A DNA stretch of 64,000 nt from Candidatus Bathyarchaeia archaeon (lineage in GTDB: Archaea > Thermoproteota > Bathyarchaeia > 40CM-2-53-6): contig JBEKVV010000003.1 of assembly GCA_049513715.1 (NCBI GenBank), forward strand, positions 384,001-448,000, given 5' to 3'. Positions 1-31,770 of the stretch are shown here, piece by piece. Each line of letters opens with the position of its first letter. The stretch's first letter is position 1. The notes under the pieces are model-generated. The model made no database searches. It was not told where the DNA came from and worked only from the letters and a program-made list of their open reading frames with translations. The translations under genes and the position numbers were made by a program.

Positions 1-760
1 CCTCGACAACCTCTTTGGCGGAAACGTGGACGATGTGCATTCGGGCGCCTGCAGCCCGCGCAATGTAACCACTCCTCAAAGTGGCTTCGCCTTCAGCGAT
101 TCCCGGTTTCGATTCGAGGTACGCCTTCAAGTCCCGACCACCCTTCGCCTTGACTTTCTTTGCAAAGTATTCTATCATCTCACCGTTCTCTGCATGTACC
201 GCCCAGGGGCGGTTCGTTTTCGCCACAGCTGCCAACACGTCGAAGAAAGAACCGTCGTCCGTGGGGTAGATGCCCATCATGTCTTTTTCTCGGCCGGGAT
301 AAATCATTGTGAAAGTCTTGTAAGCGGCGGCGCCAAGAGTGGCGAGTTTCTCAATTTCCTGAATATTATGTGTGCCCGCGCCGGCGTACAACGCGAAATC
401 AACTACACTCTTCTTGTTTGCCGCCGCCAACTTAGCTTGAAAACCCTCGACTGTGGAGGTGGGAGGTATTGTGGTGGGCATTTCTATGCATGTGGTTAGC
501 CCGCCTGCGGCGGCGCTTTTGGTACCGCTTTCGAAATCTTCAAAACTCGACCTTTCAAGGTCGCGAAAATGTGAATGCGCGTCTATGCATCCTGGAAGCA
601 CCAAGTTGCCTTTGGCGTCGATGACTTCTCCAGCCGACGGTGCTGAGGCATTTTTCGTTATGGATTGGATCTGGCCGTTTCGAATTCCTATCGCGCCGTC
701 GTATGAGCCTTCGGCTGTGATTATTCGCGCATTCTTGACAAGTAGGTCTACTTGATTCAA
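1..760 (-). CDS. Cyclic amidohydrolase, dihydroorotase/allantoinase family (3' end runs off the window)
   Basis: Not in the ORF track. Manual translation from TTG at 760 gives MNQVDLLVKNARII...VLPGCIDAHSHFRD...AAAGGLTTCIEMP...AYKTF...VHAEN...HIVHVS, i.e. the HxH, carbamylated Lys and His metal ligands. Confidence 0.9.
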   Translation of the reverse strand, partial: MNQVDLLVKNARIITAEGSYDGAIGIRNGQIQSITKNASAPSAGEVIDAKGNLVLPGCIDAHSHFRDLERSSFEDFESGTKSAAAGGLTTCIEMPTTIPPTSTVEGFQAKLAAANKKSVVDFALYAGAGTHNIQEIEKLATLGAAAYKTFTMIYPGREKDMMGIYPTDDGSFFDVLAAVAKTNRPWAVHAENGEMIEYFAKKVKAKGGRDLKAYLESKPGIAEGEATLRSGYIARAAGARMHIVHVSAKEVVE

Positions 761-928
761 ATTGAATCGCAGCAGCAAACAATAAAGCTCGATAAATGCG
801 TTTAGGTGTAATCCGTTCGATTATTCGAAATCCTTTCTCAACGGAGGAAACGTCCCATCCAAACGTGTTGGACTCGCAACGAAAACCGTTTCGAGATAAG
901 TAATTTCCAATTTGCTTCTTGAGTGAGG

Positions 929-1339
929 TCAATCCCACCGCGGTACGTAGATGTGGTCAGCGATTATCTTGAGGATGACTCGTTTTTCGCCTGGCTCCCG
1001 GTGTTGCTCCGGGTACTTTTCTACATCCATGTATTTCTTTGCCAGCTTGTCGGCATGGTCTTCAGCTAGCCGGCCCGCGATTTGCGCGATTACTCGCCCC
1101 TGCAGGGCCACAAACCTGTATGGATTAATTTGGTCGATCACGAAGACGGCGACGCGTGGGTCTCTTGTGGTGTTCTTCTGCTTCACCCGACCGATAGCCG
1201 TGTTAATGAGCACATATTCTCCGTCAGTGTCGACCCAGGTTGGTGTTACTTGCGGAGACCCGTCCGGATTGATTGTGGCGAGAGATGCGATGTTCTTACC
1301 TTCCATTAGCTTGAGGGCGGTCGCATCCAGTTTTGTCAT
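929..1339 (-). CDS. PPOX-class F420-dependent oxidoreductase
   Basis: LATINPDGSPQVTPTW, R-x-K-x-x-N...RDPRVA motifs; 136 aa. Confidence 0.85.
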   Translation of the reverse strand: MTKLDATALKLMEGKNIASLATINPDGSPQVTPTWVDTDGEYVLINTAIGRVKQKNTTRDPRVAVFVIDQINPYRFVALQGRVIAQIAGRLAEDHADKLAKKYMDVEKYPEQHREPGEKRVILKIIADHIYVPRWD

Positions 1340-1446
1340 GACGCATCAATTTGGGAAATCCCATCCTATCCCCATATATGGGATACCTACCGGTGCCCAT
1401 TGTTGAGGGTCGAGGCCCAAATTCTCGTATCCAAGCCCGATTGCGA

Positions 1447-1974
1447 TCAGGAATAAATCGGTATTTCGTTGCCGTTCAGCACAAGCTGTCGTTGAAGTGG
1501 AGGTGGGTGGCGAAGCGTGTTGTAGGCTGGACAACCATCTTCAACGGCCTTCAGCCATTCGCGAATTCGCTCGGGTGACTCAGGTGACTGGATTCGAATC
1601 TCGTATTTTATGTCCTGCATTGCAGCGGAGACTCCCGGGAATCCATAGCAGCCCCTCTCATTGACGAGCCCACGAACCGATATCTCAACACTGTCCAGTT
1701 GGAGGTTCATGAGCGCTGCATGGGCCGCGCCGATGGAAAGCTGACAGAACGCAAATCCCGCAAGAAAGTACTCGAGCGGTGCTGGTCCCTCTCCTCGCCC
1801 ACCGCGTTCATCCGGCTCATCGCTTACGAAAACGAAAGGCCCCGCTTGCGCTTCACATCTGAAGCGCTGAACCAAACGCACCACACGAACACGATTAGGA
1901 TTTAGGCCATACTGCGGCTCAGATTTGAGTCGTCCAATCATGTGCTCTATTTCGGTTTTTGTCGGAAGGTGCAT
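1447..1974 (-). CDS. OsmC/Ohr family protein
   Basis: SDEP...GGRGEGPAPLEYFLAGFAFC and second Cys in DGCPA. Confidence 0.85.
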   Translation of the reverse strand: MHLPTKTEIEHMIGRLKSEPQYGLNPNRVRVVRLVQRFRCEAQAGPFVFVSDEPDERGGRGEGPAPLEYFLAGFAFCQLSIGAAHAALMNLQLDSVEISVRGLVNERGCYGFPGVSAAMQDIKYEIRIQSPESPERIREWLKAVEDGCPAYNTLRHPPPLQRQLVLNGNEIPIYS

Positions 1975-2435
1975 GTTCTGCCGTCCGCGTTGCGTAGCCC
2001 GGTTCTACAATATATTTGTGGGTTTTCTTGTGTGGAACTATACAGATGCACGATCTAAGGCAGACATGCAACGGAAAAATCCATCAGGTCGCATTTCTGA
2101 ATGAGGTATTGAGGCTCACCATGAGTTTCAGCAGTGCTTGCAGAAGTGGGAGGGTAATGGCCTTTGCTAATCCTAGTGCCTCCACAGATTCTCAAGACGC
2201 TCAGTGTTCGCATTTTCATTCATGATTGTTCTTACAGCTCGCCCGTCGTGTTGGCCGAGCTTTTTTCTGATTTTGGGTCAGATAGCACAAGTCAAAATTA
2301 CTACACGCGGTAGCATTCAAACAGACCCCAAGAACCTCTCGTGACCTTTTACCCTGCTTTTTTCGTGACCATACTTTCGTCAGAATAACGGTTAGCAGCA
2401 GTGTCCCAGCCACTGAGATTGCTAACGCTCCATAT

Positions 2436-2753
2436 GGAATCGACGTTGGGCCAGCCATGTACTTTGCCAAGATTGAATATGCCCTTGACTACCTGGGCGC
2501 CAAAGAATGGTGGGCCACATTCGAAAGCTACATCGGGCTAAGAATCATGGGAACCGAATGGGCTCCCAAACAGAAACCGTTCCCCGACATGCAACATGAA
2601 CTCGGCGGCTCACGCATCTTCTACACAACCAAAGAAGACTGGGAAAACTTCACGAAAAAGAAGTACGCCCGCTACATCGGTGAGAGACCCCCACCAAAAG
2701 AACTGCTAGCCAAATCGCAGAAATTCAAGATTCCAGAAAAAGCAGACGTCTAA
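2436..2753 (+). pseudogene. 5'-truncated paralog of the GNAT-like protein at 25810-26565
   Basis: 98-aa ORF aligns without gaps to the last 98 aa of the 251-aa protein (51/98 identical by manual count); similarity extends upstream only to GIDVGPA at about 2436. Confidence 0.8.
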
Positions 2754-2769
2754 CCCAACGACTATCAAA

Positions 2770-3633
2770 TTACGCAGGCCGCTCATGAACACGCCCCCGT
2801 CGCAGAACCACAATCACCGCAATTGCCCCCAACACAACAATAGCGAAAGCGCTGTAAAGTTGCCACGGAGCAACTCCCCCCAAGATCGTGATTGAATCCA
2901 CATTCAGCACCTCCACTTCAGAGTATGCGGGAAGGCTGACATCATTTCCCTCCCAGATGGCTCGGATATGCCATTGCCCCGGCATGTCAGGCGAGAATCT
3001 GCCTTCATAGTACCCTCCAGGGTACGGTCCGCCGGTCGCGTTGAGGGCTACGTGCATCATTATGGATGTGTTGTCAGGACGAATTAGGGCCACAACCACA
3101 TGGTCTTGGAGGCATGGGATGCAAGCAAACAAGAGGCCGTTGAATTCAACTTCTCGCCCATGGCTGGCTTGATTCGTGGATAGGTAGAGTGAGAGGCTCG
3201 GCTGGATCACAACGGTGAATGTCTTTGTGGATGAAGTTGCTTGGTAACCTAGTTGGCTTGAAAATGAAGCATTAACGACCCATGGACCTATTCGTAGAAG
3301 ATAGGTTGTATTCACGATATCTTGAAAGAGACCGCTAGGATTCGACGTAATCATAGACACTTCACGAGTTGCGTTTGTGTCTCCCACCCTATTGTACTGC
3401 AAGCTGACTGACAGAAGAGGTATCGGACGATCATCCGATGTGGATGAAAGTCGTCCATTAACAATCAGGAGATCCCCTCGGAGAGGCCTGTCGTTACTGA
3501 AGGATAGTTCTATCTTCGCGCCTTGAGGCGAGGATGAAACAGCAGATGGCGACCATGACCAGAATACGAGAATCATCAGAGACGCGAATAGGAAAACTTT
3601 GGCGAATTTCACGTACGAATTCCCTAGCTCCAC
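2770..3633 (-). CDS. Secreted/membrane-anchored protein with Ig-like beta domains
   Basis: N-terminal signal-like hydrophobic segment, beta-rich core (GQWHIRAIWEG), C-terminal TM helix followed by RRGR. Confidence 0.7.
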   Translation of the reverse strand: MELGNSYVKFAKVFLFASLMILVFWSWSPSAVSSSPQGAKIELSFSNDRPLRGDLLIVNGRLSSTSDDRPIPLLSVSLQYNRVGDTNATREVSMITSNPSGLFQDIVNTTYLLRIGPWVVNASFSSQLGYQATSSTKTFTVVIQPSLSLYLSTNQASHGREVEFNGLLFACIPCLQDHVVVALIRPDNTSIMMHVALNATGGPYPGGYYEGRFSPDMPGQWHIRAIWEGNDVSLPAYSEVEVLNVDSITILGGVAPWQLYSAFAIVVLGAIAVIVVLRRGRVHERPA

Positions 3634-3810
3634 TCCGACCCTCTCCCTTTCTGCTCCTATTTACTTTGCGACCATCGAACCGCTAATATACGTTGCCGGC
3701 TGCCAAATAGAGATTAAAGCACATAGAGTAATTTCCGCAAGTATGATCATTTCAGACGTGCCACAACACTCTTTAGCCCAATCATTGTGTGCAAGATAGT
3801 AGAACCCTGG

Positions 3811-5349
3811 ATGACGAATCCAAACACAACGCCCGAAAACGCACTCGTAGCTGAGGGCATAACGAAACGATTCGGCTCACTCGCAGCAAACGACAACGTC
3901 AATTTTACTGTAAAGCGCGGGGAGGTCCACGCTCTCCTAGGAGAGAATGGAGCAGGCAAAACTACTCTCTGCAACATGCTCTACGGCCTCTTGCGGCCTG
4001 ACTCAGGACGAATCCTGGTCGATGGAAAAGAGACACGCTTTCACTCGCCCCGCGATGCAATGAACGCGAAGATCGCTATGGTTCACCAGGAATTCATGCT
4101 CCTCAATCCAATGACTGTTGTCGAGAACGTTGCGGTAATGCAGAACGAAGGCTGGAGACATCCCCTCATAAAACGCGAAAGCTTGGAAAGCGAGATCGCC
4201 GAAGTCGCGAAACGAAATGGATTGGCCGTGGACCCGAATGCTACGATTCGCGAACTATCGGCTGGGCAGAGGCAGTCGGTGGAGATTGTGAAGGCCCTCT
4301 TCAAGGGCGCAAACATACTGATTCTCGACGAACCCACTTCCGTTCTCTCGCCCTTAGAAACCCGTGAACTTTTCTCTGCTTTGCGTCAAATGGCAAAAGC
4401 GGGGAAGTCTATCGTATTTGTCTCACACAAGATCGATGAGATACTTGCTGTCACTGACAACGTGACAGTCCTGAAACAGGGCAAAGTTGTAGCCACTGAA
4501 AGCACGAAGAAAGTGACGGGACCAGAACTGGCAAAGATGATAGTCGGCCGTGAGGTCCTATTTCGAACCCAGAAGCTAAGCGCCCAGATAACCAGCCCGT
4601 TCCTCGAACTAAATGACATAGATGCAGTTAACAACTTGGGACTCAACGCCCTAGAACAAGTCTCGATTTCCGTCAAGGGCGGAGAGATTCTTGGTATTGC
4701 GGGTATTGCTGGGAATGGTCAAAGGGAACTTGTCGAGGTTGCGACGGGTATCCGGAAACCTACTGCTGGGAAGATTTCTGTTATGGGTAAGGATGTGACG
4801 GGATGGGTTCCTGATGAGATTAGAGAACTAGGCCTAGCCCACATCCCTGAGGACCAGAAAGCAGGTTTGGTATTCGACTTCTCATTATCTGACAATTTGA
4901 TGATTGAACCACATGTGGCACGAATGTTTACAAAGGCTGGATTGCTCGATCGGCGGTCCATCGGCGCTGAACTGACCAAACTCATGTCGGAATATGACGT
5001 TCGCGCTCAGTCGCAAGCAGTTCCCATATGGACACTCTCAGGGGGAAATAAGCAGAAGTTCCTACTGTCAAGGGAACTCTTCTGGAACCCGAAAGTCATC
5101 ATTGCCCATAATCCCACGAAGGGCTTGGATGTAGCTGCCACTGAGTATACACGCAAAATCTTGATGAGAGAGAAGGAGAAAGGAAGGGCGATTCTGCTCA
5201 TATCCACTGAACTTGATGAACTCTTGGACATGAGCGACCGGATCGCGGTCATGTGCAATGGCAGGATTTCTGGAACCTTTCCGATCAATGCCGTCAAGAT
5301 TGAAGAGATAGCTATACTGATGACACAAAGTAAGTCTCATTCATCATAG
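3811..5349 (+). CDS. Nucleoside/sugar (CUT2-type) ABC transporter ATP-binding protein with two ABC domains
   Basis: GENGAGKTT, LSAGQRQ, LILDEPT, second domain LSGGNKQK; ATG at 3811 preferred over TTG at 3787. Confidence 0.93.
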   Translation: MTNPNTTPENALVAEGITKRFGSLAANDNVNFTVKRGEVHALLGENGAGKTTLCNMLYGLLRPDSGRILVDGKETRFHSPRDAMNAKIAMVHQEFMLLNPMTVVENVAVMQNEGWRHPLIKRESLESEIAEVAKRNGLAVDPNATIRELSAGQRQSVEIVKALFKGANILILDEPTSVLSPLETRELFSALRQMAKAGKSIVFVSHKIDEILAVTDNVTVLKQGKVVATESTKKVTGPELAKMIVGREVLFRTQKLSAQITSPFLELNDIDAVNNLGLNALEQVSISVKGGEILGIAGIAGNGQRELVEVATGIRKPTAGKISVMGKDVTGWVPDEIRELGLAHIPEDQKAGLVFDFSLSDNLMIEPHVARMFTKAGLLDRRSIGAELTKLMSEYDVRAQSQAVPIWTLSGGNKQKFLLSRELFWNPKVIIAHNPTKGLDVAATEYTRKILMREKEKGRAILLISTELDELLDMSDRIAVMCNGRISGTFPINAVKIEEIAILMTQSKSHSS

Positions 5350-5366
5350 AAAGAGACAGGCTGCCC

Positions 5367-6371
5367 CTATCCGCCTTTCTTGTAGGGCTCCATTAGAGCA
5401 GCGGGAGCCACCGCTCCTCTTCCCAGAATTGGAATCAAAGCAACAATCGTGATGTAGGGAAGCATGTTCAGAAAGAAGTACTTGACCGGAATCCCCGCGC
5501 CCTGCAAACCGAGCTGCAAGGAATCAACGAAACTGAAAATGATCAACGGTAAGAGCACTCGGTAAGGCTTCCACTTACCGAAGTAGATGAGTGCAAGTGC
5601 GATGAATCCGCGACTGAAAGTGACGTTTAGGATGAAAGTGCCTAGGAGGGTGGTTGTGTAGTATGCGCCGCCTGCGCCGGCAAATGCGGCGCCTATGAGC
5701 ACCGCGATGTATCGAATCTTGTAGACATCGACACCCATCGTTTCAGCTGCCCGCGGATTTTCACCTACAGCTCTAATCTTCACCCCAAGATTAGTTCTAT
5801 TCAGGAAGAAGTCGACAACAGGTATGAGCGCGATCGAAACGTAGACGATAGGGTTCTGTTGAAAGATGAATCTCCCAACCAAAGGCAGTGTTGAGAGAAC
5901 GGGAATATGCATGTCTCCGATTATTGGAATGGTGGCCGTAGCTCCTGAAGTGAAGAACGCCCGGTTCAGTGTGTCGGATAACCCTAACCCAAAAAGCCAG
6001 AGGCCGAGCCCGATTACAACCTGGTTGGTACGTAGGCTAACCGCGAAGAAGGCGAAAACGAGACCTAGAACGACTGTGAATCCCATTGCTGCAATCACCC
6101 CTATGAGAGGATTCCCAGTGAGGAAGGTTACAGCAAAGGCCATGAAAGCACCCATTAACATGAGGCCCTCCACTCCCAAGTTCAGAACACCAGATTTTTC
6201 CGCGATCAGCTCGCCTAGACAGGCTAACAAGAGTGCAGGAACCAACTTGAGAGTCTGGTAAAGAACTGCTTCCAGGAACAACATTCCAAACAGCTGGTAG
6301 ACCACAGCCATTCCCACTATGGCTATGACCGCTGCCAGAGCCAACGTTCTGATCGAATTTTTTCCTAGCAA
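5367..6371 (-). CDS. Nucleoside ABC transporter permease (NupC-like)
   Basis: EKSGVLNLGVEGLMLMGAF, RAVGENPRAAETMG, RGFIALA. Confidence 0.92.
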   Translation of the reverse strand: MLGKNSIRTLALAAVIAIVGMAVVYQLFGMLFLEAVLYQTLKLVPALLLACLGELIAEKSGVLNLGVEGLMLMGAFMAFAVTFLTGNPLIGVIAAMGFTVVLGLVFAFFAVSLRTNQVVIGLGLWLFGLGLSDTLNRAFFTSGATATIPIIGDMHIPVLSTLPLVGRFIFQQNPIVYVSIALIPVVDFFLNRTNLGVKIRAVGENPRAAETMGVDVYKIRYIAVLIGAAFAGAGGAYYTTTLLGTFILNVTFSRGFIALALIYFGKWKPYRVLLPLIIFSFVDSLQLGLQGAGIPVKYFFLNMLPYITIVALIPILGRGAVAPAALMEPYKKGG

Positions 6372-6378
6372 GGAGAAT

Positions 6379-7380
6379 TCACGACTTTCTCCGTCCCATG
6401 AGGTATTGACCGGCTGCTAAGCTGAAGAGGATGATTCCTTCGATTGTGTAGACTAATGCGAAAGGAACTTGGGCAGCGCTTTGCATTGCTTCGGCGCCAA
6501 CGACAAAGTAGCTTATGACAAGGGAAGCTACAGCGGTGCCTATTACAGACGTCCCACCAAGCATCGCGACGACTATTGCAATGTAGCCATAGCCCGACGG
6601 GTAACCTGGGTCGAGAGTGAATATCACGCCGCTTACGTGAATAGCTCCAGCGAGGCCTGCCATCGCACCCGCTAGAAGCAGAGTAACCATGTAGACTCTC
6701 GGAATGCTGATACCCGCATATCTTGCGGCCTCTTGATTCCTTCCCACAGTTCTAACTTGAAGTCCGAATGAGGTCCTCTCACTTAGCAAATAGAAGACAA
6801 GCACCAAACCGACCGCGATCACGATACCGAATCCAAGCCTTGTCGCAGGAATTAGTTTCGGAATTCTCAGGTCAGGGGGTAACATATCTGAGATTAGATA
6901 ACCAAACGAAGCTTTCCCCCGAATGGGTCCGTCGAGAGCATAAAGTAGGAAGTTCGATGCAACAAGATTTAGCAGAAGAGTGACTACGATCTCATTGGCT
7001 CCAAACCTAGCCTTCAGGAGCGCCGGAACAACCATCCACAGCAGGCCCCCTGCGGCGCCTGCCAACATCATCAGAACAACTAGAATTGGGGCCGGTATCG
7101 AGTTGACGTGGAAGGCAACGTACATCGCCATAACGCTCCCAACAATGAACTGTCCTTCGGCGCCAACATTCCAAACTCCAGCTCTCATACCAAGTGCGAT
7201 ACCCAAACCCATGATTAGGAGTACGGTTACTCGAACGAAAATCTCACTAAAAGAGTAGACACTAGATATCGGGCTTAACAAAAGGGAGATCGAGGCTGCT
7301 CTAAGGTCGCCACCTATCGCGGCGACTAGAGTTAGCCCCGAAACTATGCCGACTGCCAGTGCGAGGGCGTTGTAGCCCAC
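6379..7380 (-). CDS. Nucleoside ABC transporter permease (NupB-like)
   Basis: WNVGAEGQ, ANEIVVTLLLN, AARYAGI; GTG at 7380 avoids overlap with the BMP gene (open frame extends to 7434). Confidence 0.9.
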   Translation of the reverse strand: MGYNALALAVGIVSGLTLVAAIGGDLRAASISLLLSPISSVYSFSEIFVRVTVLLIMGLGIALGMRAGVWNVGAEGQFIVGSVMAMYVAFHVNSIPAPILVVLMMLAGAAGGLLWMVVPALLKARFGANEIVVTLLLNLVASNFLLYALDGPIRGKASFGYLISDMLPPDLRIPKLIPATRLGFGIVIAVGLVLVFYLLSERTSFGLQVRTVGRNQEAARYAGISIPRVYMVTLLLAGAMAGLAGAIHVSGVIFTLDPGYPSGYGYIAIVVAMLGGTSVIGTAVASLVISYFVVGAEAMQSAAQVPFALVYTIEGIILFSLAAGQYLMGRRKS

Positions 7381-7394
7381 GCCACGTAGTCGTG

Positions 7395-8501
7395 CTACGG
7401 TTTGCACTGCGGTTGGTTTGCGTTGTCGAAGCACGTTGGATCCAACGTGTATGGAAGACCATTCAATCTAATGTTAAATTGTTGTTGTAGGAGCGCAGCC
7501 TGGAAGTTCGCAGGCACTGTAGACCCAAATTCGCCTAGGGAAACCATGCCGGAGAACAGGTCTGCTTGCAGCCAGATGTTCTTGTAATCGCCTCTGACGT
7601 AAGATGCGAGCGCTGAAAGGTACGCAATGTCCCAGTGCACTACGATGCTTTGCATTATGTGTGTTGGATCTAGGTGTGCTGCGTCTGTGTAGCATCCGGT
7701 CATCATTATGTTTCTTTCCGCAGCCGCTTGTCTGACTCCGACGTCAACTCCATCTCCACTGCTGAAAATGAAATCAACGCCCTGGTCTGCCATTTGTTCT
7801 GCTGACTTCTTTGCCCCCGCTACGTCCGCCCACGAGAACGGCATCCATGTTTGAATGAACGTTACGCTTGGGTTCGAGTGCAATGCACCGCGCATGAATG
7901 CCTCGTGGCCTTCCCAGATTGAGGGAACTCGGCCGCCACCAATCAAGCCGAGCTTGTTGGTCTTGGTCATGTTTCCTGCTAGGAGACCCATCAGGTAGGC
8001 ACTGTCAGCCATGTACCACCACACATCACCAACGTTACTTGGATCAGTGCCATCATGGCCGCCTTTGAAGCAGTCGACGCAAAGGAAGAGGGTGTTGGGG
8101 AACTGTGGAGCGATTTTGATGAACATGTCTTGGTATTGAATACCCTGTCCAATGATCACATTGTAGCCCTGGGTTGCCCATTGAGTGGCAACTGGTTCAG
8201 CTTTGGTTCCATCAAACAGGTTTTCTGCTACAGAAGCGTTGAAGCCAAACTGATCGCCCAGTAACTTGATAGAATGATCCGCTTGGTAGTTCCATGAATA
8301 GTCTTCTGGCGTTATTGGCAGAATAAGGCCTACTTTGAGTTTCGCGAAAGCGCTGGCCATCTCACCGGTGACCGTTGTAGTTACTGTAGTCATTGCGCCC
8401 CCGCCTTGACTAGGCATCATAGAGGGGCCGACGAAAATACCGATTACGAGTCCGACGACGAGCATTACGATCATAGCAACCGCTGTGATAGATTGTTTCA
8501 T
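7395..8501 (-). CDS. BMP-family ABC transporter substrate-binding protein (nucleoside/nucleobase)
   Basis: D-x-SWN, AYLMGLLAGNMTKTNKLGLIGG, W-x-D...K motifs; N-terminal TM anchor and Thr-rich linker. Confidence 0.9.
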   Translation of the reverse strand: MKQSITAVAMIVMLVVGLVIGIFVGPSMMPSQGGGAMTTVTTTVTGEMASAFAKLKVGLILPITPEDYSWNYQADHSIKLLGDQFGFNASVAENLFDGTKAEPVATQWATQGYNVIIGQGIQYQDMFIKIAPQFPNTLFLCVDCFKGGHDGTDPSNVGDVWWYMADSAYLMGLLAGNMTKTNKLGLIGGGRVPSIWEGHEAFMRGALHSNPSVTFIQTWMPFSWADVAGAKKSAEQMADQGVDFIFSSGDGVDVGVRQAAAERNIMMTGCYTDAAHLDPTHIMQSIVVHWDIAYLSALASYVRGDYKNIWLQADLFSGMVSLGEFGSTVPANFQAALLQQQFNIRLNGLPYTLDPTCFDNANQPQCKP

Positions 8502-8918: not shown

Positions 8919-9218
8919 TTGCCAATCAAGGTCAAACTGCACGGCCGGATTAGAACAGCTGTCGGCTCGGACGAAATAGAACTCCCGGGTGCAGTGAATA
9001 CTGCCGGTGAACTACTAGAAGGACTGGTGCGCAAACTTGGACCCGATGTTAGTCGATACATATTCGACCCTGGAACGAATGAGATGAGCCCAACCCTAGT
9101 TCTGCTTGTAAACGGCCACAGCATCAAAATGCTTGAAGGCTTGAGAACCACACTAGTCGAACGAGATACAGTCTCGATCGATAGCGTTGACATTATGGAA
9201 ATAGTAGGAGGGGGATGA
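8919..9218 (+). CDS. MoaD/ThiS/SAMP ubiquitin-like sulfur carrier
   Basis: Beta-grasp pattern, LLVNG, C-terminal GGG. Confidence 0.85.
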   Translation: MPIKVKLHGRIRTAVGSDEIELPGAVNTAGELLEGLVRKLGPDVSRYIFDPGTNEMSPTLVLLVNGHSIKMLEGLRTTLVERDTVSIDSVDIMEIVGGG

Positions 9219-13074: not shown

Positions 13075-13078
13075 GAAG

Positions 13079-16959: not shown

Positions 16960-16960
16960 G

Positions 16961-17842: not shown

Positions 17843-17846
17843 GAAG

Positions 17847-21138: not shown

Positions 21139-21141
21139 GTA

Positions 21142-23393: not shown

Positions 23394-23550
23394 TTCGCGA
23401 AGTCACGCCTAGGGTTAAGCACGTCACTCAACTGAAATCCGGAAGCCCCCTGCGCGTAATTAATGATTAGCCGTGATTTCAATTCGCACGATTGAGAGTT
23501 CGCCAAAATCAACTTATATCCTGGCTGGGCTCAGCGAGCGGGTGGTTCTT

Positions 23551-24834
23551 GTGGCCTCGCGTAATCCTGCTGAAATCAAGGATGAAATCGAGAAGGCCAA
23601 TCAACTCGCAGTTACTAGAATGATGGATTCCGACCCATTCTGGGTTGGTATTGGACTCGCTCGAAAAGTCATAGCAGGCATGAAAGAGAAGATGTTCCTC
23701 CACGCTGGACCCCCCATTGAATGGGACGGGATGAGTGGGCCGATGAAGGGGGCCATCATGGGTGCTGCGATTTACGAAGGTTGGGCGCGGGATGGAGTTG
23801 AGGCGGAGAAGCTCGCGAAATCCGGCCAGATCACATTCGCTCCAAATCACCACTATGACGCGGTAGGCCCCATGGCTGGTGTAATATCCCCAAACATGCC
23901 CGTATACATTGTCAAAGACCGAAAGCACGGCTACCAGACGTATTCAAACCTGAACGAAGGAATCGGGAAGGTCCTGAGATATGGCGCCTATTCAAGCGAA
24001 GTAATCCAGAGGCTGGCCTGGATGCGCGATACTCTCGCAACAACCCTCGACTCGACCCTCAAGGAAATCCTGAAAGACAAGGAGGGAGTTGCCATGAAAC
24101 CGATAATCACTCAAGCTTTGACAATGGGCGACGACTGCCACAACCGATACAACGCCGCAACATCACTCTTCCTCAAAGAGATCACGCCCTACATGATGAG
24201 CACTGGAATCGACAAGAAGACACTGATCGAGGCTTTCAATTTCATGAGCCAGAACAATTTCACGTTGCTCAACCTAGGCATGGCGAGTGGGAAGGCCATC
24301 ACCTTAGCCGCTCACAAAATCAAGTACAGCACGATTGTGACGGTGCTTACGAGAAATGGAACCGATGCTGGAATTTGGGTGAGCGGCCTTGACAATGAAT
24401 GGTTTACCGCTCCTGCCCCTGTGCCGAAGGGTGTCTGGTTCCCAGGGTTCACTGAAAAGGACGCTAACCCGGACCTAGGAGACAGCGCAATAACGGAAAC
24501 AGCCGGATATGGTGGCTTCGCAATGGCCGCTGCACCAGGCATCGTTTCCTGGGTTGGCGGAAGCGTCGCCTACGCCGTTGAGAACACCCAGAAAATGTAC
24601 GAGATCACCTACACAAAGAACAAGGATTTCATAATCCCGTTCCTCGACTTCCAAGGAACACCAACAGGAATTGATATTCGCAAAGTCGTTAGGACAGGAA
24701 TCACACCGACAATAAACACCGGAATAGCTCACAAAGAAGCTGGAATCGGACAGGTTGGCGCAGGCATCGTAGCTTTCCCAATGGAAACCTTCAAACAAGC
24801 ACTCAAATCGTACGCGCAGAAATACGGCCTCTAA
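23551..24834 (+). CDS. DUF1116 (YlbE/AllG-like) protein
   Basis: LHAGPP, AVGPMAGVISP, LTMGDDCHNR, NPDLGDSAITE, INTGIAHK..GIGQVGAG; GTG at 23551 after GGTGG (open frame extends to 23473). Confidence 0.92.
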   Translation: MASRNPAEIKDEIEKANQLAVTRMMDSDPFWVGIGLARKVIAGMKEKMFLHAGPPIEWDGMSGPMKGAIMGAAIYEGWARDGVEAEKLAKSGQITFAPNHHYDAVGPMAGVISPNMPVYIVKDRKHGYQTYSNLNEGIGKVLRYGAYSSEVIQRLAWMRDTLATTLDSTLKEILKDKEGVAMKPIITQALTMGDDCHNRYNAATSLFLKEITPYMMSTGIDKKTLIEAFNFMSQNNFTLLNLGMASGKAITLAAHKIKYSTIVTVLTRNGTDAGIWVSGLDNEWFTAPAPVPKGVWFPGFTEKDANPDLGDSAITETAGYGGFAMAAAPGIVSWVGGSVAYAVENTQKMYEITYTKNKDFIIPFLDFQGTPTGIDIRKVVRTGITPTINTGIAHKEAGIGQVGAGIVAFPMETFKQALKSYAQKYGL

Positions 24835-24840
24835 GGACCA

Positions 24841-25755
24841 GTGTTGCGAACACGTATTCACGCGATCCATGTTGGCCGACTAGCAGCGCAAGCACTCTCA
24901 GGTCCCGGGCCAAGAGACATTGGAGAAATAGTCGCGGCCTTTCCAAATTCATTCTACCTGAAAACTAGGGATCATGAACTCATCTTCGTAACTAATCGCG
25001 AGTTGAAATCTCCAATAACGATTAATCTTAACTCAAAAGCAGACCTGGTTCAGATTGCAAAACCATCTGAAGTTGTGTCTCTGCTTGAAAATGAAATTCG
25101 AATAGGCGAATTAGGATCCATTGACCTTAATGGAGCATCATCATACGAGCGCTATCTGGTCCCCCAAGTTAACCAATTCGCGGTGGCTCGAGAGTCACTC
25201 CAACTCGGATCACTGATTCTAATGATAGTCGACACACATCTTAGTGTGCTCGACCCTGCTGGCTTCGCGTATTCTGGCGCCCTTGAATTTGTTTCAAAAG
25301 GTGTCGTCCCATTTCGTCGGTCGGGTGACGCGGAGCATTTCTGTGATGCAGCCCGGAAAATTGTGGGTTTGGGTGGGGGATTCACACCATCAGGAGACGA
25401 CTTGCTAGGCGGTTTCCTCGCAACCTACAACTCGTTTGCACAACAAAAGGGTGGCCAGATAGTCCTGTTAAATTTCGACCTCATCGAGAGCAAAACGAGT
25501 TGGATAAGTGCGAAACTGTTGGACTATATGCAACGACGTGTACTCGATGACCAAATCAGCGAACTGATACGCTCTGCTGCCTCAAGCGATACAGACAGCT
25601 TTATTGTGGCTTTGGAAACTCTGCTGCCGAGGGGCCACACTTCCGGAATTGACATTCTGGTTGGAGTAATCCTTGCTCTCAGCTTGACGTATGACATTCA
25701 ATCGAAAACGAATGAAACGCGCGCTGTTGCTGATAGGTTAGGGTTGCTATCTTAG
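24841..25755 (+). CDS. DUF2877 (YlbF/AllH-like) protein
   Basis: GLGGGFTPSGDDLLGG and GHTSGID motifs. Confidence 0.9.
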   Translation: MLRTRIHAIHVGRLAAQALSGPGPRDIGEIVAAFPNSFYLKTRDHELIFVTNRELKSPITINLNSKADLVQIAKPSEVVSLLENEIRIGELGSIDLNGASSYERYLVPQVNQFAVARESLQLGSLILMIVDTHLSVLDPAGFAYSGALEFVSKGVVPFRRSGDAEHFCDAARKIVGLGGGFTPSGDDLLGGFLATYNSFAQQKGGQIVLLNFDLIESKTSWISAKLLDYMQRRVLDDQISELIRSAASSDTDSFIVALETLLPRGHTSGIDILVGVILALSLTYDIQSKTNETRAVADRLGLLS

Positions 25756-25809: not shown

Positions 25810-26565
25810 ATGCCTAGAAAACGTCCTCTTGGAGTTATGTTTATGTCGTTTAAACCTCCATGCCCGGTTACGCTTACTGAAGTCAAAATAAACGTCGAAG
25901 ACTTGGAACCAATTCTGCGGCCTCCAGAATCACCTCTTCTTGCTAGACCTTACAGTCCGAGGCTGCTCAAGCTTCCGGACGGCAAGAGAATGGTCGTCAG
26001 GATGGCAACGGCCGAAGACACCGATGTCATTCTGAAGACCACGCGCTCCATCATGGATGAGGAGAAGGACTTCTACGACTTGGTTTCGTCCAGGGTTTAC
26101 GGGGAAGTTCTCTCGCACAAGAGGAAACGTGTCAAAGATTACTATTGCCTCGTTGGAGTCCTTGAAGGAGAACTCGCGGCCATAGCCAACGCCCGACTGT
26201 GGGACGAGAAGGTCGCCATCAGCCTTCACACAATGACCTTCAAACGCGGCGCCGGGATAGGCGCACTCATGTACCTAGCGAAAATGGAGCATGCCTTCGA
26301 AAACCTCGGCGTCGAAGAATGGTGGGCCACATACGAGAGCTACACAGGAATCCGGTATTGGGGACTAGGCCTAGCACAGTTCCAGAAACCCTACCCACAA
26401 ATTCAACACGAGCTGGGCGGCGCCAGAGTCTTCTTCAACACCAAAGACCAATGGTACAGTTTTGTAAAACCAAAATACGAAAAACGCCTGGGCGAACGCC
26501 CCGTGCCAGCCGACTTACTCAAACAATCTCAAAACCCGAAACAACCAGCACACATAGACCTCTGA
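25810..26565 (+). CDS. GNAT-like N-acetyltransferase-fold protein of unknown function
   Basis: VRMATAED, YCLVGVLEGELAA, motif-A-like KRGAGIG; true start may be ATG 25837 or 25843. Confidence 0.7.
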   Translation: MPRKRPLGVMFMSFKPPCPVTLTEVKINVEDLEPILRPPESPLLARPYSPRLLKLPDGKRMVVRMATAEDTDVILKTTRSIMDEEKDFYDLVSSRVYGEVLSHKRKRVKDYYCLVGVLEGELAAIANARLWDEKVAISLHTMTFKRGAGIGALMYLAKMEHAFENLGVEEWWATYESYTGIRYWGLGLAQFQKPYPQIQHELGGARVFFNTKDQWYSFVKPKYEKRLGERPVPADLLKQSQNPKQPAHIDL

Positions 26566-26701: not shown

Positions 26702-27868
26702 TTGCCTCGAACGAATTTGAGGGATGTTTACGTTACTGGCGTTGCGTTGACAAAGTTTGGGAAACGCCCAGATATGGGGCTGGTTGAACTTGCCGTTGAC
26801 GCAGGTTTAGGTGCCCTGAAAGATGCAGCGCAAGAGAACTTGAAGGTTGATGCAGTTTATGTGGGCAATGCCGCGTCGGGGCAACTATGTGGAATGGAGA
26901 ACCTTGGCCCCATAGTTGCAGAACGTCTAGGTTTGCTCCCATGTGAGGCTCAGAGAATCGAGGCCACGACCGCCTCGGGCTCATGCGCTTTCAAAGAAGC
27001 CTACCGAGAAATCGCAGGTGGTTTCTTGGATACGGTCCTCGTGGTCGGAGCCGAGAAGATGACGCATATACCCACGGAAGATGCAACCAAGGTGCTCGCG
27101 TCCAGCATGACCCACCCAACCGGCGAAACTGTGCACGGAGCGAGTATGCCCTCTTTGGCAGCTATGTTCACACGAAGGTATCTTGAGAAATTCAACCTCT
27201 CAACCAAGCATTTGGCCCTCGTGGCCGTAAAGAATCACGCCAACGCCCTACTGAACCCCTACGCCCAATTCCAAAAAAAGATTACAATCGAAGACGCATT
27301 GTCCTCCCCCATAGTTGCCGAGCCGTTGCGAGTAACAGACTGCGCACCTATGACCGACGGGGCTGCAGCGGTTCTACTGCAGGCCAAGCCAACATCCAGA
27401 GTGCCAGTTAGGATTCGAGGGGTTGGGCATTCGACTGATAGGCAGATGTTCTACCAGCGATCTGAGGAATTCGCTATTCCTGCTCTGAAAGATGCTGCTC
27501 GGAAAGCGTTCCAAAGTGCTCAGTTAACCCCCAGCGACATCGATGTCGCAGAACTCCATGATGCTTTCACGGTTCTGGAAATCGTGGAAAGCGAGGATGT
27601 CGGTTTCTTCCCGAAAGGTGAAGGCGCAAAAGCCTTGGAAGACGGAGTCACTCAGATTGGCGGTCGACTGCCAATCAACACCGGTGGGGGGCTGAAAGCG
27701 CGTGGCCATCCCCTCGGAGCCACTGGGGTTGCGCAGATTGTGGAATTGACTTGGCAACTGAGGGGCGAGGCGGAGCAGAGGCAGGTCGCCGATGCTAAGG
27801 CCGCGCTCGCATGTAATTTTGCTGGGCTTGGAAACAGTGTGGTCGTAACGATTCTGGATAGGAGTTGA
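26702..27868 (+). CDS. SCP2-type thiolase-family protein lacking the canonical nucleophilic Cys
   Basis: VVGAEKM, CAPMTDGAAA, ELHDAF, GHPLGATG; EATTASG where EAACASG is expected. Confidence 0.9.
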   Translation: MPRTNLRDVYVTGVALTKFGKRPDMGLVELAVDAGLGALKDAAQENLKVDAVYVGNAASGQLCGMENLGPIVAERLGLLPCEAQRIEATTASGSCAFKEAYREIAGGFLDTVLVVGAEKMTHIPTEDATKVLASSMTHPTGETVHGASMPSLAAMFTRRYLEKFNLSTKHLALVAVKNHANALLNPYAQFQKKITIEDALSSPIVAEPLRVTDCAPMTDGAAAVLLQAKPTSRVPVRIRGVGHSTDRQMFYQRSEEFAIPALKDAARKAFQSAQLTPSDIDVAELHDAFTVLEIVESEDVGFFPKGEGAKALEDGVTQIGGRLPINTGGGLKARGHPLGATGVAQIVELTWQLRGEAEQRQVADAKAALACNFAGLGNSVVVTILDRS

Positions 27869-28233
27869 GGAACATGGGATCTGTTGCGGAACAAATGATT
27901 CGCGAAAAAAAACTGCTAGGGTCGAAGTGTGATCGGTGTGGGTATGTAGGGTTCCCGGCAATTAGCGTCTGCCCCAAATGCGGGCCTGGATACTTGGACC
28001 ATGTGAAGCTAGCGGAACTTCCCACAAAGGGCGCAGTGGTCACTTGGACGAAACTTAGGGTTGCGCCGAAGGGTTTCCCCTCACCACTGCTTCACTGTGT
28101 TCTTGATTTAGGAATCGTGAAAATACTTGGCACGGTGCAGGGAACTGAGGAAATTCGGCTTGGGGAAAAAATGGTGATCATGGAGGATACGTCTGGTCGA
28201 TTTCCTTACGTATTCTGGCGTCCCACATCGTGA
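27865..28233 (+). CDS. DUF35 Zn-ribbon/OB-fold protein (thiolase partner)
   Basis: CDRCG....P....CPKC followed by OB fold; 4-nt overlap with the thiolase. Confidence 0.9.
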   Translation: MRNMGSVAEQMIREKKLLGSKCDRCGYVGFPAISVCPKCGPGYLDHVKLAELPTKGAVVTWTKLRVAPKGFPSPLLHCVLDLGIVKILGTVQGTEEIRLGEKMVIMEDTSGRFPYVFWRPTS

Positions 28234-28304: not shown

Positions 28305-29165
28305 TTGATTCTCGTAACAGGCGCCGCAGGAAAGACTGGCAAAGCAGTCATTAGAGCACTTGTTTCTAAACGGCAACAGATGCGCGCTCTGGTTCACCGC
28401 AAAGAACAGGCGGAGCTTGTCCAATCCTTGGGAGCGAAAGAGGTGGTCGTCGGAGATATGCAGTCATCAAACACAATAGCCGAAGCAACACGCGGAGTGA
28501 GCGCTATCTATCATATTTGCTCAAACATGAACCCAGCTGAGGTTCAGATCGGCAGAGCGATGATTTCCGCATCGAAATCCGCCAAAGTCAACCATTTCGT
28601 TTTCCATTCTGTCTTACACCCACAAGCGGAGACCATGCCACACCATTGGAACAAGATGCGGGTTGAGGAAGCGCTCTTAGAGTCTCAGCTTTCCTACACA
28701 ATACTGCAACCTGCCTCCTACATGCAGAACATCCTAGCCAATTGGCGAGACGTAGTCGAACGCGGTGTCTACTCGGTTCCGTATTCATTGGAAGCGCGTA
28801 TGAGCATGGTTGACTTGGACGATGTGGCCGAAGCCGCCGCAAAAGTGCTCTCGGAGCCGGGGCATGTTGGTGCTACGTATGAGTTGGCCGGGCCGGAGGC
28901 ACTCACTCAAACCCAGACCGCTGCTGTCCTGAGCAAGCAACTCGGGCGCGAAGTTCGCGCGGAACGGATGAGCGTTGAAAACTGGAAGCGCCGCGCTTTG
29001 AATTCTGGGCTCGGACCTTACCAGATTGATACACTCATCAGGATGTTCGAGTATTACGACCGCCACGGGTTCTGGGGCAACCCGCGCGAGCTGAGCGGCC
29101 TCATTCACCGCCCCCCTACTAAGTTCGAGGAATTCGTTCGACGAATCAAAGAGAAAACTGCTTGA
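28305..29165 (+). CDS. NmrA-family NAD(P)-binding protein (atypical SDR)
   Basis: ILVTGAAGKTG, H...K..VEE, TILQP..YMQN, VDLDDVA. Confidence 0.88.
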   Translation: MILVTGAAGKTGKAVIRALVSKRQQMRALVHRKEQAELVQSLGAKEVVVGDMQSSNTIAEATRGVSAIYHICSNMNPAEVQIGRAMISASKSAKVNHFVFHSVLHPQAETMPHHWNKMRVEEALLESQLSYTILQPASYMQNILANWRDVVERGVYSVPYSLEARMSMVDLDDVAEAAAKVLSEPGHVGATYELAGPEALTQTQTAAVLSKQLGREVRAERMSVENWKRRALNSGLGPYQIDTLIRMFEYYDRHGFWGNPRELSGLIHRPPTKFEEFVRRIKEKTA

Positions 29166-29197
29166 GGAATACACATTCCAAGTGGATAGTGTTCCGC

Positions 29198-30295
29198 TCA
29201 TTCTAGAGTTGCTGTTGAGACTGAATAGACCGGGGGTAACCATTGAGCCAGCGTCCTCCAGCTCTTACCTTCGTCAGAGCTGTTGAATACGTGACCCATT
29301 CGAGTACCGACGTACAAGCCCGCGGGCTCTAGCTGGTCTGAGGCAAGGCCTTCCCGGTAGCAACCCAAGTACGCGTTTTCAGCAGGCAATCCCTTCCCGA
29401 GTTTCCTCCAAGCCCTACCAGCGTTCGCTGTTCCGTAAACCGTGAATTGGCGTTTTGCGGCCACGCGGAAGAAATCACCCTCCTCCGGAACAACGTAGAA
29501 CCGTTCAGATTTGTGCGGGTGCGCCGCCATCGGAAAACCGAACCCACTTGGCAATCCCTTGGAGACCTCAACCCAACTCTCCGCCGCGTCCTCAGAACGG
29601 TAGACGCCGCAATGATTCTGTTGATACAGATAGTCCGGGTTGTTTGGGTCCATAACGAGTTTGTGTACGCATTGCCCAAACTCAGGGTACTTTTCAGGCA
29701 GGAAGTCTGCGCGCACGTTCTTGTTCTTGGGAACCCAACTCTTCCCCCCATCTTCGGATTTGAAAACTCCGACCGCAGAAATCCCCACGTAGATTCGTTT
29801 TGGTTTTGACGGATCGATTACAATTGAATGAAGGCATAGACCGCCTGCGCCTGGCTGCCACTGCGAGTGAGTAGGATGCGTGTTCAAATTTTCGTTCATT
29901 TTCCAGGAATCTCCTTCGTCGTCGCTTCGAAAGAGCGCTCCCGGGGCCACACCTGCATAAACAACACCTGGCTCGTCCGCGTGACCTGGTTCCACGTGCC
30001 AAACGTGCTCAACCGTCGACCCCGCTCCTTCAGCGAAGCGGGGTGGATTCTTGGCGTTCTCCCATGTTTTCCCGAAATTCTTCGAGCGGAAAACTGTCGG
30101 CCCGAAGTGGCCGCTGTTCACGGCGGCGTAAATTGTCTTCCCATCGCGTCTGTCTAGTGCCATGTGAAAAACTGGAGAATTCTCGAAGTAGGGTCCTCTC
30201 ATCTTCCATTTCTTGCGTCGTGAATCGGATTCAAAGATGAAGGCGCCTTTTCTGGATCCAACCAGCGCTAAGACGCCCCGTTTTCTAGATGGCAT
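29198..30295 (-). CDS. BNR/Asp-box beta-propeller protein (sialidase-like fold)
   Basis: Repeated S-x-D-x-G-x-S/T-W boxes; GGLCLHSI, GQCVHK, YQQNHCG. Confidence 0.88.
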   Translation of the reverse strand: MPSRKRGVLALVGSRKGAFIFESDSRRKKWKMRGPYFENSPVFHMALDRRDGKTIYAAVNSGHFGPTVFRSKNFGKTWENAKNPPRFAEGAGSTVEHVWHVEPGHADEPGVVYAGVAPGALFRSDDEGDSWKMNENLNTHPTHSQWQPGAGGLCLHSIVIDPSKPKRIYVGISAVGVFKSEDGGKSWVPKNKNVRADFLPEKYPEFGQCVHKLVMDPNNPDYLYQQNHCGVYRSEDAAESWVEVSKGLPSGFGFPMAAHPHKSERFYVVPEEGDFFRVAAKRQFTVYGTANAGRAWRKLGKGLPAENAYLGCYREGLASDQLEPAGLYVGTRMGHVFNSSDEGKSWRTLAQWLPPVYSVSTATLE

Positions 30296-30438
30296 TTAGC
30301 GAGTTCCCTCCGAACGCAGCTGAGGGTGTATACTGTATAGTATTTGAATCCTACAGGGATCGAGAGTATAGCTGCCCTAACTTGCGTCCAGCGAAGTAGT
30401 CCCATTTCGCAAGTTATCTTGTATAGGTTGACCTTGCA

Positions 30439-30714
30439 TCAGCCGCCCGCTACAGCGGGGATTATTTGCAGACGGTCACCGTCTTTGAGCTTCGTGTTCA
30501 AGCCTTCCCCTTGTCTGATTTCATTCTTGTTTACGAATATGTTCACGTACCGTCTAACTTGTCTATCTTCGTCCAAAATGAAGGCCTTCAAACCAGGAAA
30601 CATTTCGTCTAGTCTCGAAACTGCTTGCTCAACCGTGACCGCATCTAGGCTGATTTCTGAATTATCTTGAGTATACTGCCGGAGAGCAGCCGGAATTGTG
30701 ACAGTTACTCTCAA
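30439..30714 (-). CDS. MoaD/SAMP1-like ubiquitin-like protein
   Basis: IPAALRQY, RRYVNIFVN, IIPAVAGG C-terminus; TTG at 30714. Confidence 0.9.
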   Translation of the reverse strand: MRVTVTIPAALRQYTQDNSEISLDAVTVEQAVSRLDEMFPGLKAFILDEDRQVRRYVNIFVNKNEIRQGEGLNTKLKDGDRLQIIPAVAGG

Positions 30715-30789
30715 TTGAACCAAGCCGAAGAATGTCTGTAAGTGATTATTCATATCTAGTTTTTGAAAATGGCCCTCAGAGGCTGTCAG

Positions 30790-31770
30790 CTACTTTTTCG
30801 ACAGGATTTCTGGGTTAACTGGGTTAGGTGGAATTTGCCCTTTCAAGCCTGAGATTAAATTGTCCGCGGCCATCAGACCCATTTTTGTTCTCGTGGCCAC
30901 GGTTGCGCTGGCAATGTGCGGGGTAATGATGACATTGCTTAGTGATAGGAGGGGGTGGTTTGAGGGTATTGGCTCAGGCTCAGTCACGTCTAAAGCTGCG
31001 AACGCAATCTTCCTATCCCTCAGTGCCTCGAACAGAGCTATGTTGTCAACTATCGGGCCTCGTGCAGTGTTAACGAGCACCGCCGTTTTCTTCATCCTGG
31101 CGAGTTCCTTGGCTCCGATTAAATTGTGGGTTTCTGTCGTCAGGTTCGTGTGAACAGTGACGAAATCAGATTCGGTCAGTAACCTCTCGAATTCAGCATA
31201 CTCTACGCCGAGCTCCTTCTCGACCTCATCCGCTCGGCGGAGATCATAGTAGAGTGATTTCATGCCGAAGCCTTGTGCTCGCCGCGCGACCGCCCTTCCG
31301 ATCCTTCCAAAACCAATAATCCCCAAGGTTGCGCCGTGTATATCCTGGCCGAGTAGAATCAATGGGCCCCACGTTTTCCAATTGCCCGCTCTAACTAGTT
31401 TGTCCCCTTCCACGATACGCCGCGCTGCAGCCATCATGAGCGCAAATGCAAGGTCAGCGGCAGTTTCTGTCAGAACATCGGGGGTGTTGGTAACGATTAT
31501 TCCGCGCCTCGTGGCTTCAACAACATCCACGTTATCGTAGCCCACTGCGTAATTGCTGACTACCCGCAGCTTTGGCGCCTTATTCATCAGCTCCGCGTCA
31601 ACTTTGTCCGTAAGAAGACACAATAGGCCTTCAACGTCTCGAACATGTTCAAGCAGCACTTGCCGTCCCGGAGGAACCTCCCCCTCCCACACTTTGGTAT
31701 CGCAGAATGACCGAATCCGTTCCATGGCTTCCTCTGGCAGCAGCCTTGTCACGTAGACTTTTGGTTTCAT
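30790..31770 (-). CDS. gyaR: Glyoxylate reductase / D-glycerate dehydrogenase
   Basis: MKPKVYVTR, AVGYDNVDV, GFGRIG, NTARG, LDVTEPEP, PHIASA. Confidence 0.9.
   Translation of the reverse strand: MKPKVYVTRLLPEEAMERIRSFCDTKVWEGEVPPGRQVLLEHVRDVEGLLCLLTDKVDAELMNKAPKLRVVSNYAVGYDNVDVVEATRRGIIVTNTPDVLTETAADLAFALMMAAARRIVEGDKLVRAGNWKTWGPLILLGQDIHGATLGIIGFGRIGRAVARRAQGFGMKSLYYDLRRADEVEKELGVEYAEFERLLTESDFVTVHTNLTTETHNLIGAKELARMKKTAVLVNTARGPIVDNIALFEALRDRKIAFAALDVTEPEPIPSNHPLLSLSNVIITPHIASATVATRTKMGLMAADNLISGLKGQIPPNPVNPEILSKK

Follow-up and report, generated by a model that had tools for sequence, protein, structure and literature searches.

In a 64,000-nucleotide stretch of the Candidatus Bathyarchaeia archaeon assembly GCA_049513715.1 (hereafter the window, G000:C3:384001-448000, where G000 is the source genome and C1 and C3 are its contigs), we describe a conserved gene cluster that probably encodes an oxygen-independent, energy-conserving route for oxidative breakdown of the pyrimidines uracil and thymine, without a barbiturase. 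We give this reading a probability of roughly 70%; each of its reactions is deduced from gene content, folds, motifs, conservation, neighbouring genes and absences. The conserved core comprises two molybdenum (Mo) hydroxylases, a cyclase-family hydrolase, the three AllFGH subunits, a GNAT-fold protein, a thiolase-fold protein devoid of its nucleophilic cysteine and a BMP-type ATP-binding cassette (ABC) importer. The oxidative pyrimidine pathway itself is already known; the new elements are its archaeal form, the GNAT step and a branch from thymine to succinyl-CoA. A literature search, with most subscription journals including the original Rhodococcus papers outside its reach, returned no description of this cluster.

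In the proposed pathway, the importer would take up pyrimidine bases or nucleosides, and a Mo-hydroxylase would add a water-derived oxygen at C6, converting uracil to barbiturate and thymine to 5-methylbarbiturate. The cyclase-family hydrolase, in place of barbiturase, would open the ring; the product, ureido(methyl)malonate, is an acyl-urea with one carbon more than oxalurate. AllFGH would then use phosphate to release carbamoyl phosphate, from which carbamate kinase would make ATP, and (methyl)malonamate, whose acyl group the GNAT-fold protein would transfer to CoA with loss of ammonia. On the methyl branch, methylmalonyl-CoA would reach succinyl-CoA through an epimerase (MCE) and a mutase (MCM); on the plain branch, malonyl-CoA would be decarboxylated to acetyl-CoA, a task that probably falls to the Cys-less thiolase here and to biotin/Na+-pumping decarboxylases in other clusters.

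The exact order of ring opening, AllFGH and GNAT steps is tentative, at somewhat less than even odds. In the main alternative order, the GNAT protein cleaves ureidomalonate to malonyl-CoA and urea; this leaves AllFGH idle, and G000 has no urease. The same genes also fit an order in which the GNAT protein uses CoA for ring opening and the last amide is left for the cyclase to remove. A bolder set of proposals is unlikely to hold in full: that both ring halves are captured without ATP input, the GNAT protein running backwards from amide or acyl-urea to (methyl)malonyl-CoA; that the Cys-less thiolase is a real malonyl-CoA decarboxylase which swaps with Na+-pumping ones; that enzymes of the AOR family (tungsten-type) hydroxylate the nucleobase in relatives without the Mo enzymes; and that the paralogous cyclases include a 5-methylbarbiturate hydrolase for thymine.

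The original prediction had grouped these genes, within window positions 1-31770, into a scheme of uptake, Mo-dependent hydroxylation, ring opening and carbamoyl/acyl-CoA formation. That scheme holds up, with partial support overall. All the named genes are present, and Pfam/NCBIfam profiles, by which we assigned gene families, confirm the family of all of them except the GNAT-like protein. The latter has no match to a hidden Markov model (HMM), and its structure model (pLDDT 94) shows the GNAT fold.

Conservation of the neighbourhood, suggested there as a check, indicates that the co-occurrence is not due to chance. Genome G014 keeps the core in the same order and on the same strands (GNAT-AllH-AllG-AllF-Mo2 trio-Mo1 trio-CoxG-cyclase-BMP ABC), without MCM, MCE, TudS, thiolase and the GyaR-like gene; G019 keeps the core order with MCE and a TudS pair, and locus L082 retains MCM-MCE-AllFGH-GNAT. 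The core recurs in other Thermoproteota families and in Chloroflexota, with gene order differing between lineages. On a single contig, G601 carries AllF, AllG, a double cyclase, a trio of the Mo enzyme 1 type, NmrA, the Mo type linked to barbiturase, BMP ABC genes, a Na+ decarboxylase, a cyclase and GNAT.

For these comparisons we collected, through the GNAT gene, 72 other loci with at least 10 kb of context. They are related and partly redundant, nor do related genomes count as independent, hence we quote no statistical test. Metagenome matches were limited to the 80 best of 474; at 78% identity, the 130 GNAT copies of 190 aa or longer fell into 21 groups (7 duplicate loci skipped). Of 40 relatives examined for presence of single genes, 13 have GNAT, 15 AllG and 12 the cyclase. 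Every cyclase-positive relative also has AllG, and 10 of the 12 have GNAT; AllG is found in 10/13 GNAT-positive against 5/27 GNAT-negative relatives, and in 26/28 GNAT genomes. The GNAT gene is rare: 7/300 genomes of its own phylum and 2/250 others in the phylum of G337 have it, with 52 representatives at E<=1e-30 among 1.84 billion. A cyclase accompanies it in 44/72 loci, and the two also occur as paralogous pairs.

At the substrate end, several neighbours point to common bases. A cytosine deaminase over its cut-off is a neighbour in G127; a yeast-type cytosine deaminase adjoins GNAT in G014 (E 5e-36, the next family reaching 1e-19) and is also encoded in G000 (C1:83091). Locus L091 contains a uridine phosphorylase over its cut-off, and the NCS2 permeases of G340 score best, below cut-off, as uracil permease. 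Judging by the chemistry, an acyl-urea with a malonate or methylmalonate acyl part is what C4-C5-C6 of uracil or thymine would give after oxidation.

Among the closest known systems is the actinobacterial pathway of uracil/thymine dehydrogenase, barbiturase and ureidomalonase, which shares the proposed first two steps and intermediates. In the portion of PMC3758960 available to us, the classical route leads from uracil through barbiturate and ureidomalonate to malonate and urea, and such oxidative breakdown is described as rare, from a few bacteria. A Nonomuraea protein that we identify as barbiturase (5HWE at E 9e-173, versus 2e-94 for cyanurate hydrolase) has genes for AllH-AllF-AllG and a CoxG-Mo trio at a distance of about 40 kb. 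In Embleya, a Mo enzyme 71% identical to that of Nonomuraea lies within 12 kb of a barbiturase homologue, with carbamate kinase, cytosine deaminase and NmrA. Together, the two loci hold CoxG, the Mo trio, cytosine deaminase, carbamate kinase, NmrA and AllFGH, all of them shared with GNAT clusters. Their Mo enzyme, of a clade that we infer from gene context to be uracil dehydrogenase, has a counterpart of 43-47% identity and matching motifs in the GNAT clusters of G065, G127, G337 and G340. An enzyme of this clade (NF040766-like) is absent from G000; 13/36 genomes match the model at E<=1e-150, all below its cut-off.

In contrast to the actinobacterial pathway, the window system has no barbiturase and its Mo enzymes are of another clade (30%); where the former hydrolyses the acyl-urea to malonate and urea, the latter is proposed to phosphorolyse it and keep the carbon as a CoA ester. 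Barbiturase of the AtzD/Bar family was found in 0/35 GNAT genomes, with the positive control matched, and in G000 neither by profile search, in which no control matched, nor by tblastn with two family members. Its absence from all 35 is consistent with the cyclase having taken its place. A different, reductive urate route is the subject of PMC12507026, the accessible part of which has no mention of cyclase, FdrA or barbiturate.

The importer of this cluster (window 3787-8501; PF02608, PF02653) consists of an ATPase (3787-5349, plus strand), permeases (5367-7434, minus) and a binding protein (7395-8501, minus) whose relatives in the PDB are BMP-family binding proteins. Mo-hydroxylases 1 (10726-14413) and 2 (14584-18383), each with large, FAD and 2Fe-2S subunits on the plus strand, are 53% identical, and the first falls below all named-family cut-offs; the CoxG accessory gene (10217-10663, plus; PF06240) precedes them. 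Orthologues of Mo enzyme 1 keep its active-site motifs at 60-87% identity in archaeal loci and about 45% in Chloroflexota; plasmid records hold no close homologue (best 43%). The Cys-containing active-site loop of form I aerobic CO dehydrogenase was not found, and alignment to 1FFU/1N5W shows no Cys there. In place of Mo enzyme 1, G002, G003 and G008 carry next to AllFGH an AOR-family gene about 82% identical to G000 C1:79934. The surrounding block of G000 (C1:73780-83540, L208) comprises a deaminase of altered motif, BMP ABC genes, the AOR gene, an unnamed 356-aa protein and the yeast-type cytosine deaminase; its equivalent in relatives lies next to the GNAT cluster.

The cyclase-family hydrolase (9270-10037, minus; PF04199) shares fold family and an intact metal-binding motif with the kynurenine formamidase KynB and isatin hydrolase. 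Unlike these, it forms a separate subfamily in a nucleobase context and scores far below the arylformamidase cut-off (66 vs 223). In Chloroflexota we also observed two-domain cyclases whose N-terminal half is missing some metal-motif residues (L049:14837-16510, L161:150-1871, L162:13931-15604). The GNAT-fold protein (25810-26565, plus; probable start 25843) belongs to an unnamed family. Structure comparison by VIA-align supports its fold (Z 14.2, root-mean-square deviation 3.1, 164 aligned), and R135 and G140, invariant in 61/61 sequences, lie in a loop which we take to be CoA-binding. A role as malonyl-CoA decarboxylase-type enzyme seems less likely: such enzymes are absent from the listed fold matches, and where Na+ decarboxylases are present the activity would be superfluous. 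A neighbouring gene in relatives labelled 'UPRT-like', with no Pfam or PDB match and an Atlas score of 0.79 only, was not used as evidence.

AllF/FdrA (21774-23393, minus) and AllG with AllH (23473-25755, plus, AllG probably starting near 23545; PF06545 and PF11392 over cut-off) show 35%, 45% and 30% local identity to their E. coli counterparts. As in the E. coli AllFGH-AllK system (PMC11326118), all three subunits are present, AllF keeps its His motif and the genome encodes a carbamate kinase. In contrast, G000 has no AllC, AllD or AllE to supply oxalurate, and its AllG resembles E. coli AllG no more than it does YahG or triazine-linked copies (45-50%) and falls in an archaeal clade of its own with 100/97 support. 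The E. coli enzyme was characterised on oxamate/oxalurate in the excerpt of PMC11326118 we consulted, while for nitrifiers a partial text of PMC12625717 reports AllFGH accompanying biuret hydrolase. On plasmids, AllFGH stands beside ring-opening hydrolases of the AtzD/TrzD (cyanurate) type and carbamate kinase, and in archaeon G030 beside such a hydrolase (L173:7268-12361, L174:1949-9590, L199). These loci suggest an ATP-yielding cyanurate breakdown, and because of the company it keeps on plasmids, AllFGH is not tied to oxalurate. Separately, an Acidithiobacillus megaplasmid (L186:5845-16235) has a single run of genes for a Mo trio, a ring-opening hydrolase, an AtzE-type amidase and HpxZ, which might degrade purines by way of cyanurate.

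The original prediction also held that this is not the textbook allantoin route, and the rest of the genome bears it out. Searches of G000 (2.79 Mb, 99.4% complete, 8.8% contamination), with positive controls matched in three of them, found no uricase, urease, Ldh_2/AllD, AllC or AllE, and we see no known oxalurate source there. The suggested genome-wide search for carbamate kinase retrieved one at C3:150008, between two carbamoyltransferase-like genes that pass no named cut-off (C3:148886-152090, L016).

At the product end, the window encodes the MCM large subunit (18483-20105, plus; TIGR00641 over cut-off) and MCE (20112-20516, plus; TIGR03081 over cut-off). The mutase has a Tyr/Arg motif, presumably its specificity residues, where a paralogue on C1 has Phe; a B12-binding subunit is available at C1:708263, and G000 also has a biotin carboxyltransferase. 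In 8/21 groups, GNAT has a gene for an mmdA-type carboxyltransferase, Na+ decarboxylase, MCM or MCE no more than 10 kb away, compared with 2.0% of G000 positions (5/18 when limited to groups with at least 10 kb of context). The lineages differ in their solution: MCM with MCE in the window, L082 and L118-type loci, a Na+ decarboxylase in Anaerolineales. In G119, G278 and G284 (family f32), genes for BioY, BirA, a four-subunit Na+ decarboxylase and the methylcitrate cycle lie inside the cluster, a set that conversion of methylmalonyl-CoA to propionyl-CoA would need.

Six further GNAT groups have only the Cys-less thiolase. In the window it carries Thr89 in place of the nucleophilic Cys of thiolytic enzymes, next to a Zn-ribbon/OB partner (26702-28233, plus). 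All 25 cluster thiolases, some of them duplicates, have lost this Cys, while five other thiolases of G000 keep it. Across the 72 loci, mmdA/Na+ decarboxylase genes occur in 32, the Cys-less thiolase in 14, and both in none; we propose that the thiolase and its partner may act as malonyl-CoA decarboxylase. A thiolase fold without the nucleophile and with a DUF35-type partner is likewise found in TbSLP, the Ltp2/Sal aldolases and PDB 4YZO, from which the window family differs by its own conserved motifs. The part of PMC12329534 at hand cites TbSLP as a slow malonyl-CoA decarboxylase (kcat 0.005 per s) and found no such activity for Sal, so that the fold does not fix the reaction.

Several observations weigh against pyrimidine oxidation as we propose it. 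Identity between the window's two Mo enzymes and the barbiturase-linked one is only 29-30%, the recurring need for two per cluster is left unexplained, and Mo enzyme 1 occurs in just 4/40 relatives, one partial; 7/10 relatives with GNAT, cyclase and AllG lack its orthologue, including the 99% complete G002. The commonest neighbouring deaminase, which we did not count as cytosine deaminase, has an altered motif without one metal His and is nearer AtzC than CodA. Transfer of an acyl group from an amide to a thioester, as the GNAT step would entail, is uphill. In 13/21 GNAT groups no named malonyl-CoA enzyme lies within 10 kb, and MCM and MCE may serve housekeeping too: G014 and G008 keep MCM elsewhere, and the window MCE is the only copy found in the genome. 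Carbamate kinase adjoins 1/72 GNAT loci only, its presence in 32/35 GNAT genomes being a count without matched background.

Other points against it favour a purine or small cyclic-ureide route ending in oxalurate, in which the Mo enzymes would be xanthine dehydrogenases (XDH), the cyclase would open a parabanate-like ring, AllFGH would act as in E. coli and the malonyl-CoA genes would be bystanders. Both Mo large subunits match XDH-family HMMs best, below cut-off, and a haloarchaeal cyclase 44% identical to ours lies beside an XDH-family trio and a permease whose best-scoring model is xanthine permease. Oxalurate is also the only AllFGH product shown in the portion of PMC11326118 available. 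The full-length amidohydrolase at the window's left end barely passes the allantoinase model TIGR03178 (360 vs 358) and TIGR00857 (288 vs 279), and a GyaR-like gene adjoins the cluster. Still, we judge this route improbable: the NCBIfam XdhA/PucD/XdhB cut-offs are missed (best 548 and 480 vs 780), uricase, AllC, AllD and AllE are missing from G000, the amidohydrolase and GyaR-like gene are found in 0/72 other loci, and the recurring (methyl)malonyl-CoA enzymes and GNAT are left unexplained.

The two Mo enzymes per cluster would instead make sense if they acted in series to yield barbiturate from a modified or unusual base, such as thiouracil, 5-methylcytosine or another substituted pyrimidine, plain uracil not being the main input. 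The paired cyclase and GNAT paralogues, the frequent altered-motif deaminase and TudS-like genes in 7/72 other loci agree with this, but the canonical cytosine deaminase, uridine phosphorylase and uracil-permease-like neighbours described above speak for common bases, and we hold such a substrate to be unlikely as well. The window's own TudS-related protein, encoded with a Cys-free paralogue (20572-21537, plus; pair E 1e-7), comes close to the NF045597 cut-off (128 vs 130) and keeps two Cys motifs of the TudS thiouracil desulfidase/CD3072 family, defined according to a partial text of PMC10611767. It differs from that family in having no DUF523 Pfam match, no PDB match and a Ser at the third Cys site, which is Cys in 8/8 homologues with a readable motif. 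The desulfidase presumably needs all three cluster-binding Cys, and the window copy looks degenerate. We rejected the idea that the pair arose by division of the 303-aa form in G119, to whose C-terminal part the second gene shows no match. The modified-base substrate put forward by the original prediction survives in its methyl part, into which thymine fits via MCM and MCE, while its thio part is weak, and the substrate can be narrowed to ordinary pyrimidines.

It is most improbable that there is no single pathway at all, only a catabolic island of unrelated modules gathered by rearrangement. A 54-kb insert, eight strand switches, non-conserved edge genes and the lineage-variable order are in keeping with such an island, against which stand the order kept in G014 and G019, the same gene set in other families and Chloroflexota, and the association of cyclase with AllG (12/12) and GNAT (10/12).

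The insert bears on the extent of the pyrimidine cluster. An exact 324-bp direct repeat, corresponding to the 3' end of a second GNAT gene, is present at window 2436-2759 (plus) and at C3:332236-332559, with 53,876 bp separating the copies. In 3/4 sequencing runs, from which this DNA may derive, the repeat comes out as a separate contig with roughly double the depth of its flanks; in G014 the second GNAT gene is complete and lies immediately next to the 287-aa gene that here follows the repeat. We infer that the intervening segment (G000:C3:332560-386435; GC 50.1% vs 50.9% for the genome) entered by single-crossover insertion. It contains a glycyl radical enzyme, a Mo trio, a second BMP importer, a lone second AllG, nitrilases, many amidohydrolases and two AOR-family genes; upstream of it the core resumes with a second cyclase-GNAT pair, its cyclase at C3:330790, and a gene of the acetoacetate-CoA-ligase family. 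Since the repeat is its right border, window 1-2435 lies outside the core, and the cluster boundary earlier set at position 1 is wrong. The real conserved unit is about 28 kb plus the upstream cyclase-GNAT pair. With 8 strand switches among 28 genes, it is not one operon. Two odd strand layouts are kept across the genus and in another archaeal lineage: the ABC ATPase converging on its permeases (3787-8501) and AllF diverging from AllG (21774-24834). Promoter, terminator and repeat scans gave nothing above chance and no regulatory repeat; a run labelled metatranscriptomic, marked as probably DNA and covering 5/30 bins, was not used as expression evidence.

The remaining genes of positions 1-31770 are less central. 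Within the segment lie the 5' part of the cyclic amidohydrolase (allantoinase/dihydroorotase-like, 479 aa; 1-778, minus) and a PPOX-class F420 oxidoreductase with an OsmC-like protein (929-1974, minus), the OsmC gene being found in 8/72 other loci. The membrane-anchored 287-aa protein (2770-3633, minus), of no family, accompanies this BMP importer in Bathyarchaeia. A first MoaD/ThiS sulfur carrier (8919-9218, plus) stands beside cyclase-CoxG-Mo genes in L091, L113 and L167, and a second, of MoaD/SAMP type, is encoded with a BNR beta-propeller protein (29198-30753, minus), both of them accessory; the propeller recurs in 7/72 other loci, with a MoeB-like gene after it in L138. As such carrier genes travel with Mo-enzyme and MoeB genes in other loci, they suggest a supply of molybdopterin cofactor, which takes further support from the thio-base idea. 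An NmrA-like protein (28305-29165, plus) is 50% identical to that of the Embleya barbiturase locus. The GyaR-like glyoxylate-reductase gene (30790-31770, minus; NF009714 448 vs 455) is probably a bystander; both it and the amidohydrolase, once counted as cluster members, fall outside the conserved unit.

Farther along the window, positions 33446-36975 hold a respiratory bc-type module made up of cytochrome b, a Rieske protein and a possible heme-binding protein. By sequence reading, with no profile scan, we labelled a heavy-metal P-type ATPase with redoxin, CcdA-like, DoxX-like and Rieske-like genes (38104-49625) and, likewise by reading, a PstSCAB phosphate importer with PhoU-like genes (52245-58028).

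If the proposed pathway is correct, uncultured Bathyarchaeia, other Thermoproteota and Anaerolineae would gain ATP and carbon skeletons from the bases of DNA and RNA without a barbiturase, which would bear on nucleic-acid turnover in anoxic soils and sediments. It assigns directly testable functions to four families so far without one: the cyclase subfamily, the GNAT protein, the Cys-less thiolase and the two Mo-hydroxylase clades. It further suggests that AllFGH is a general acyl-urea phosphorylase rather than an enzyme of allantoin use only.

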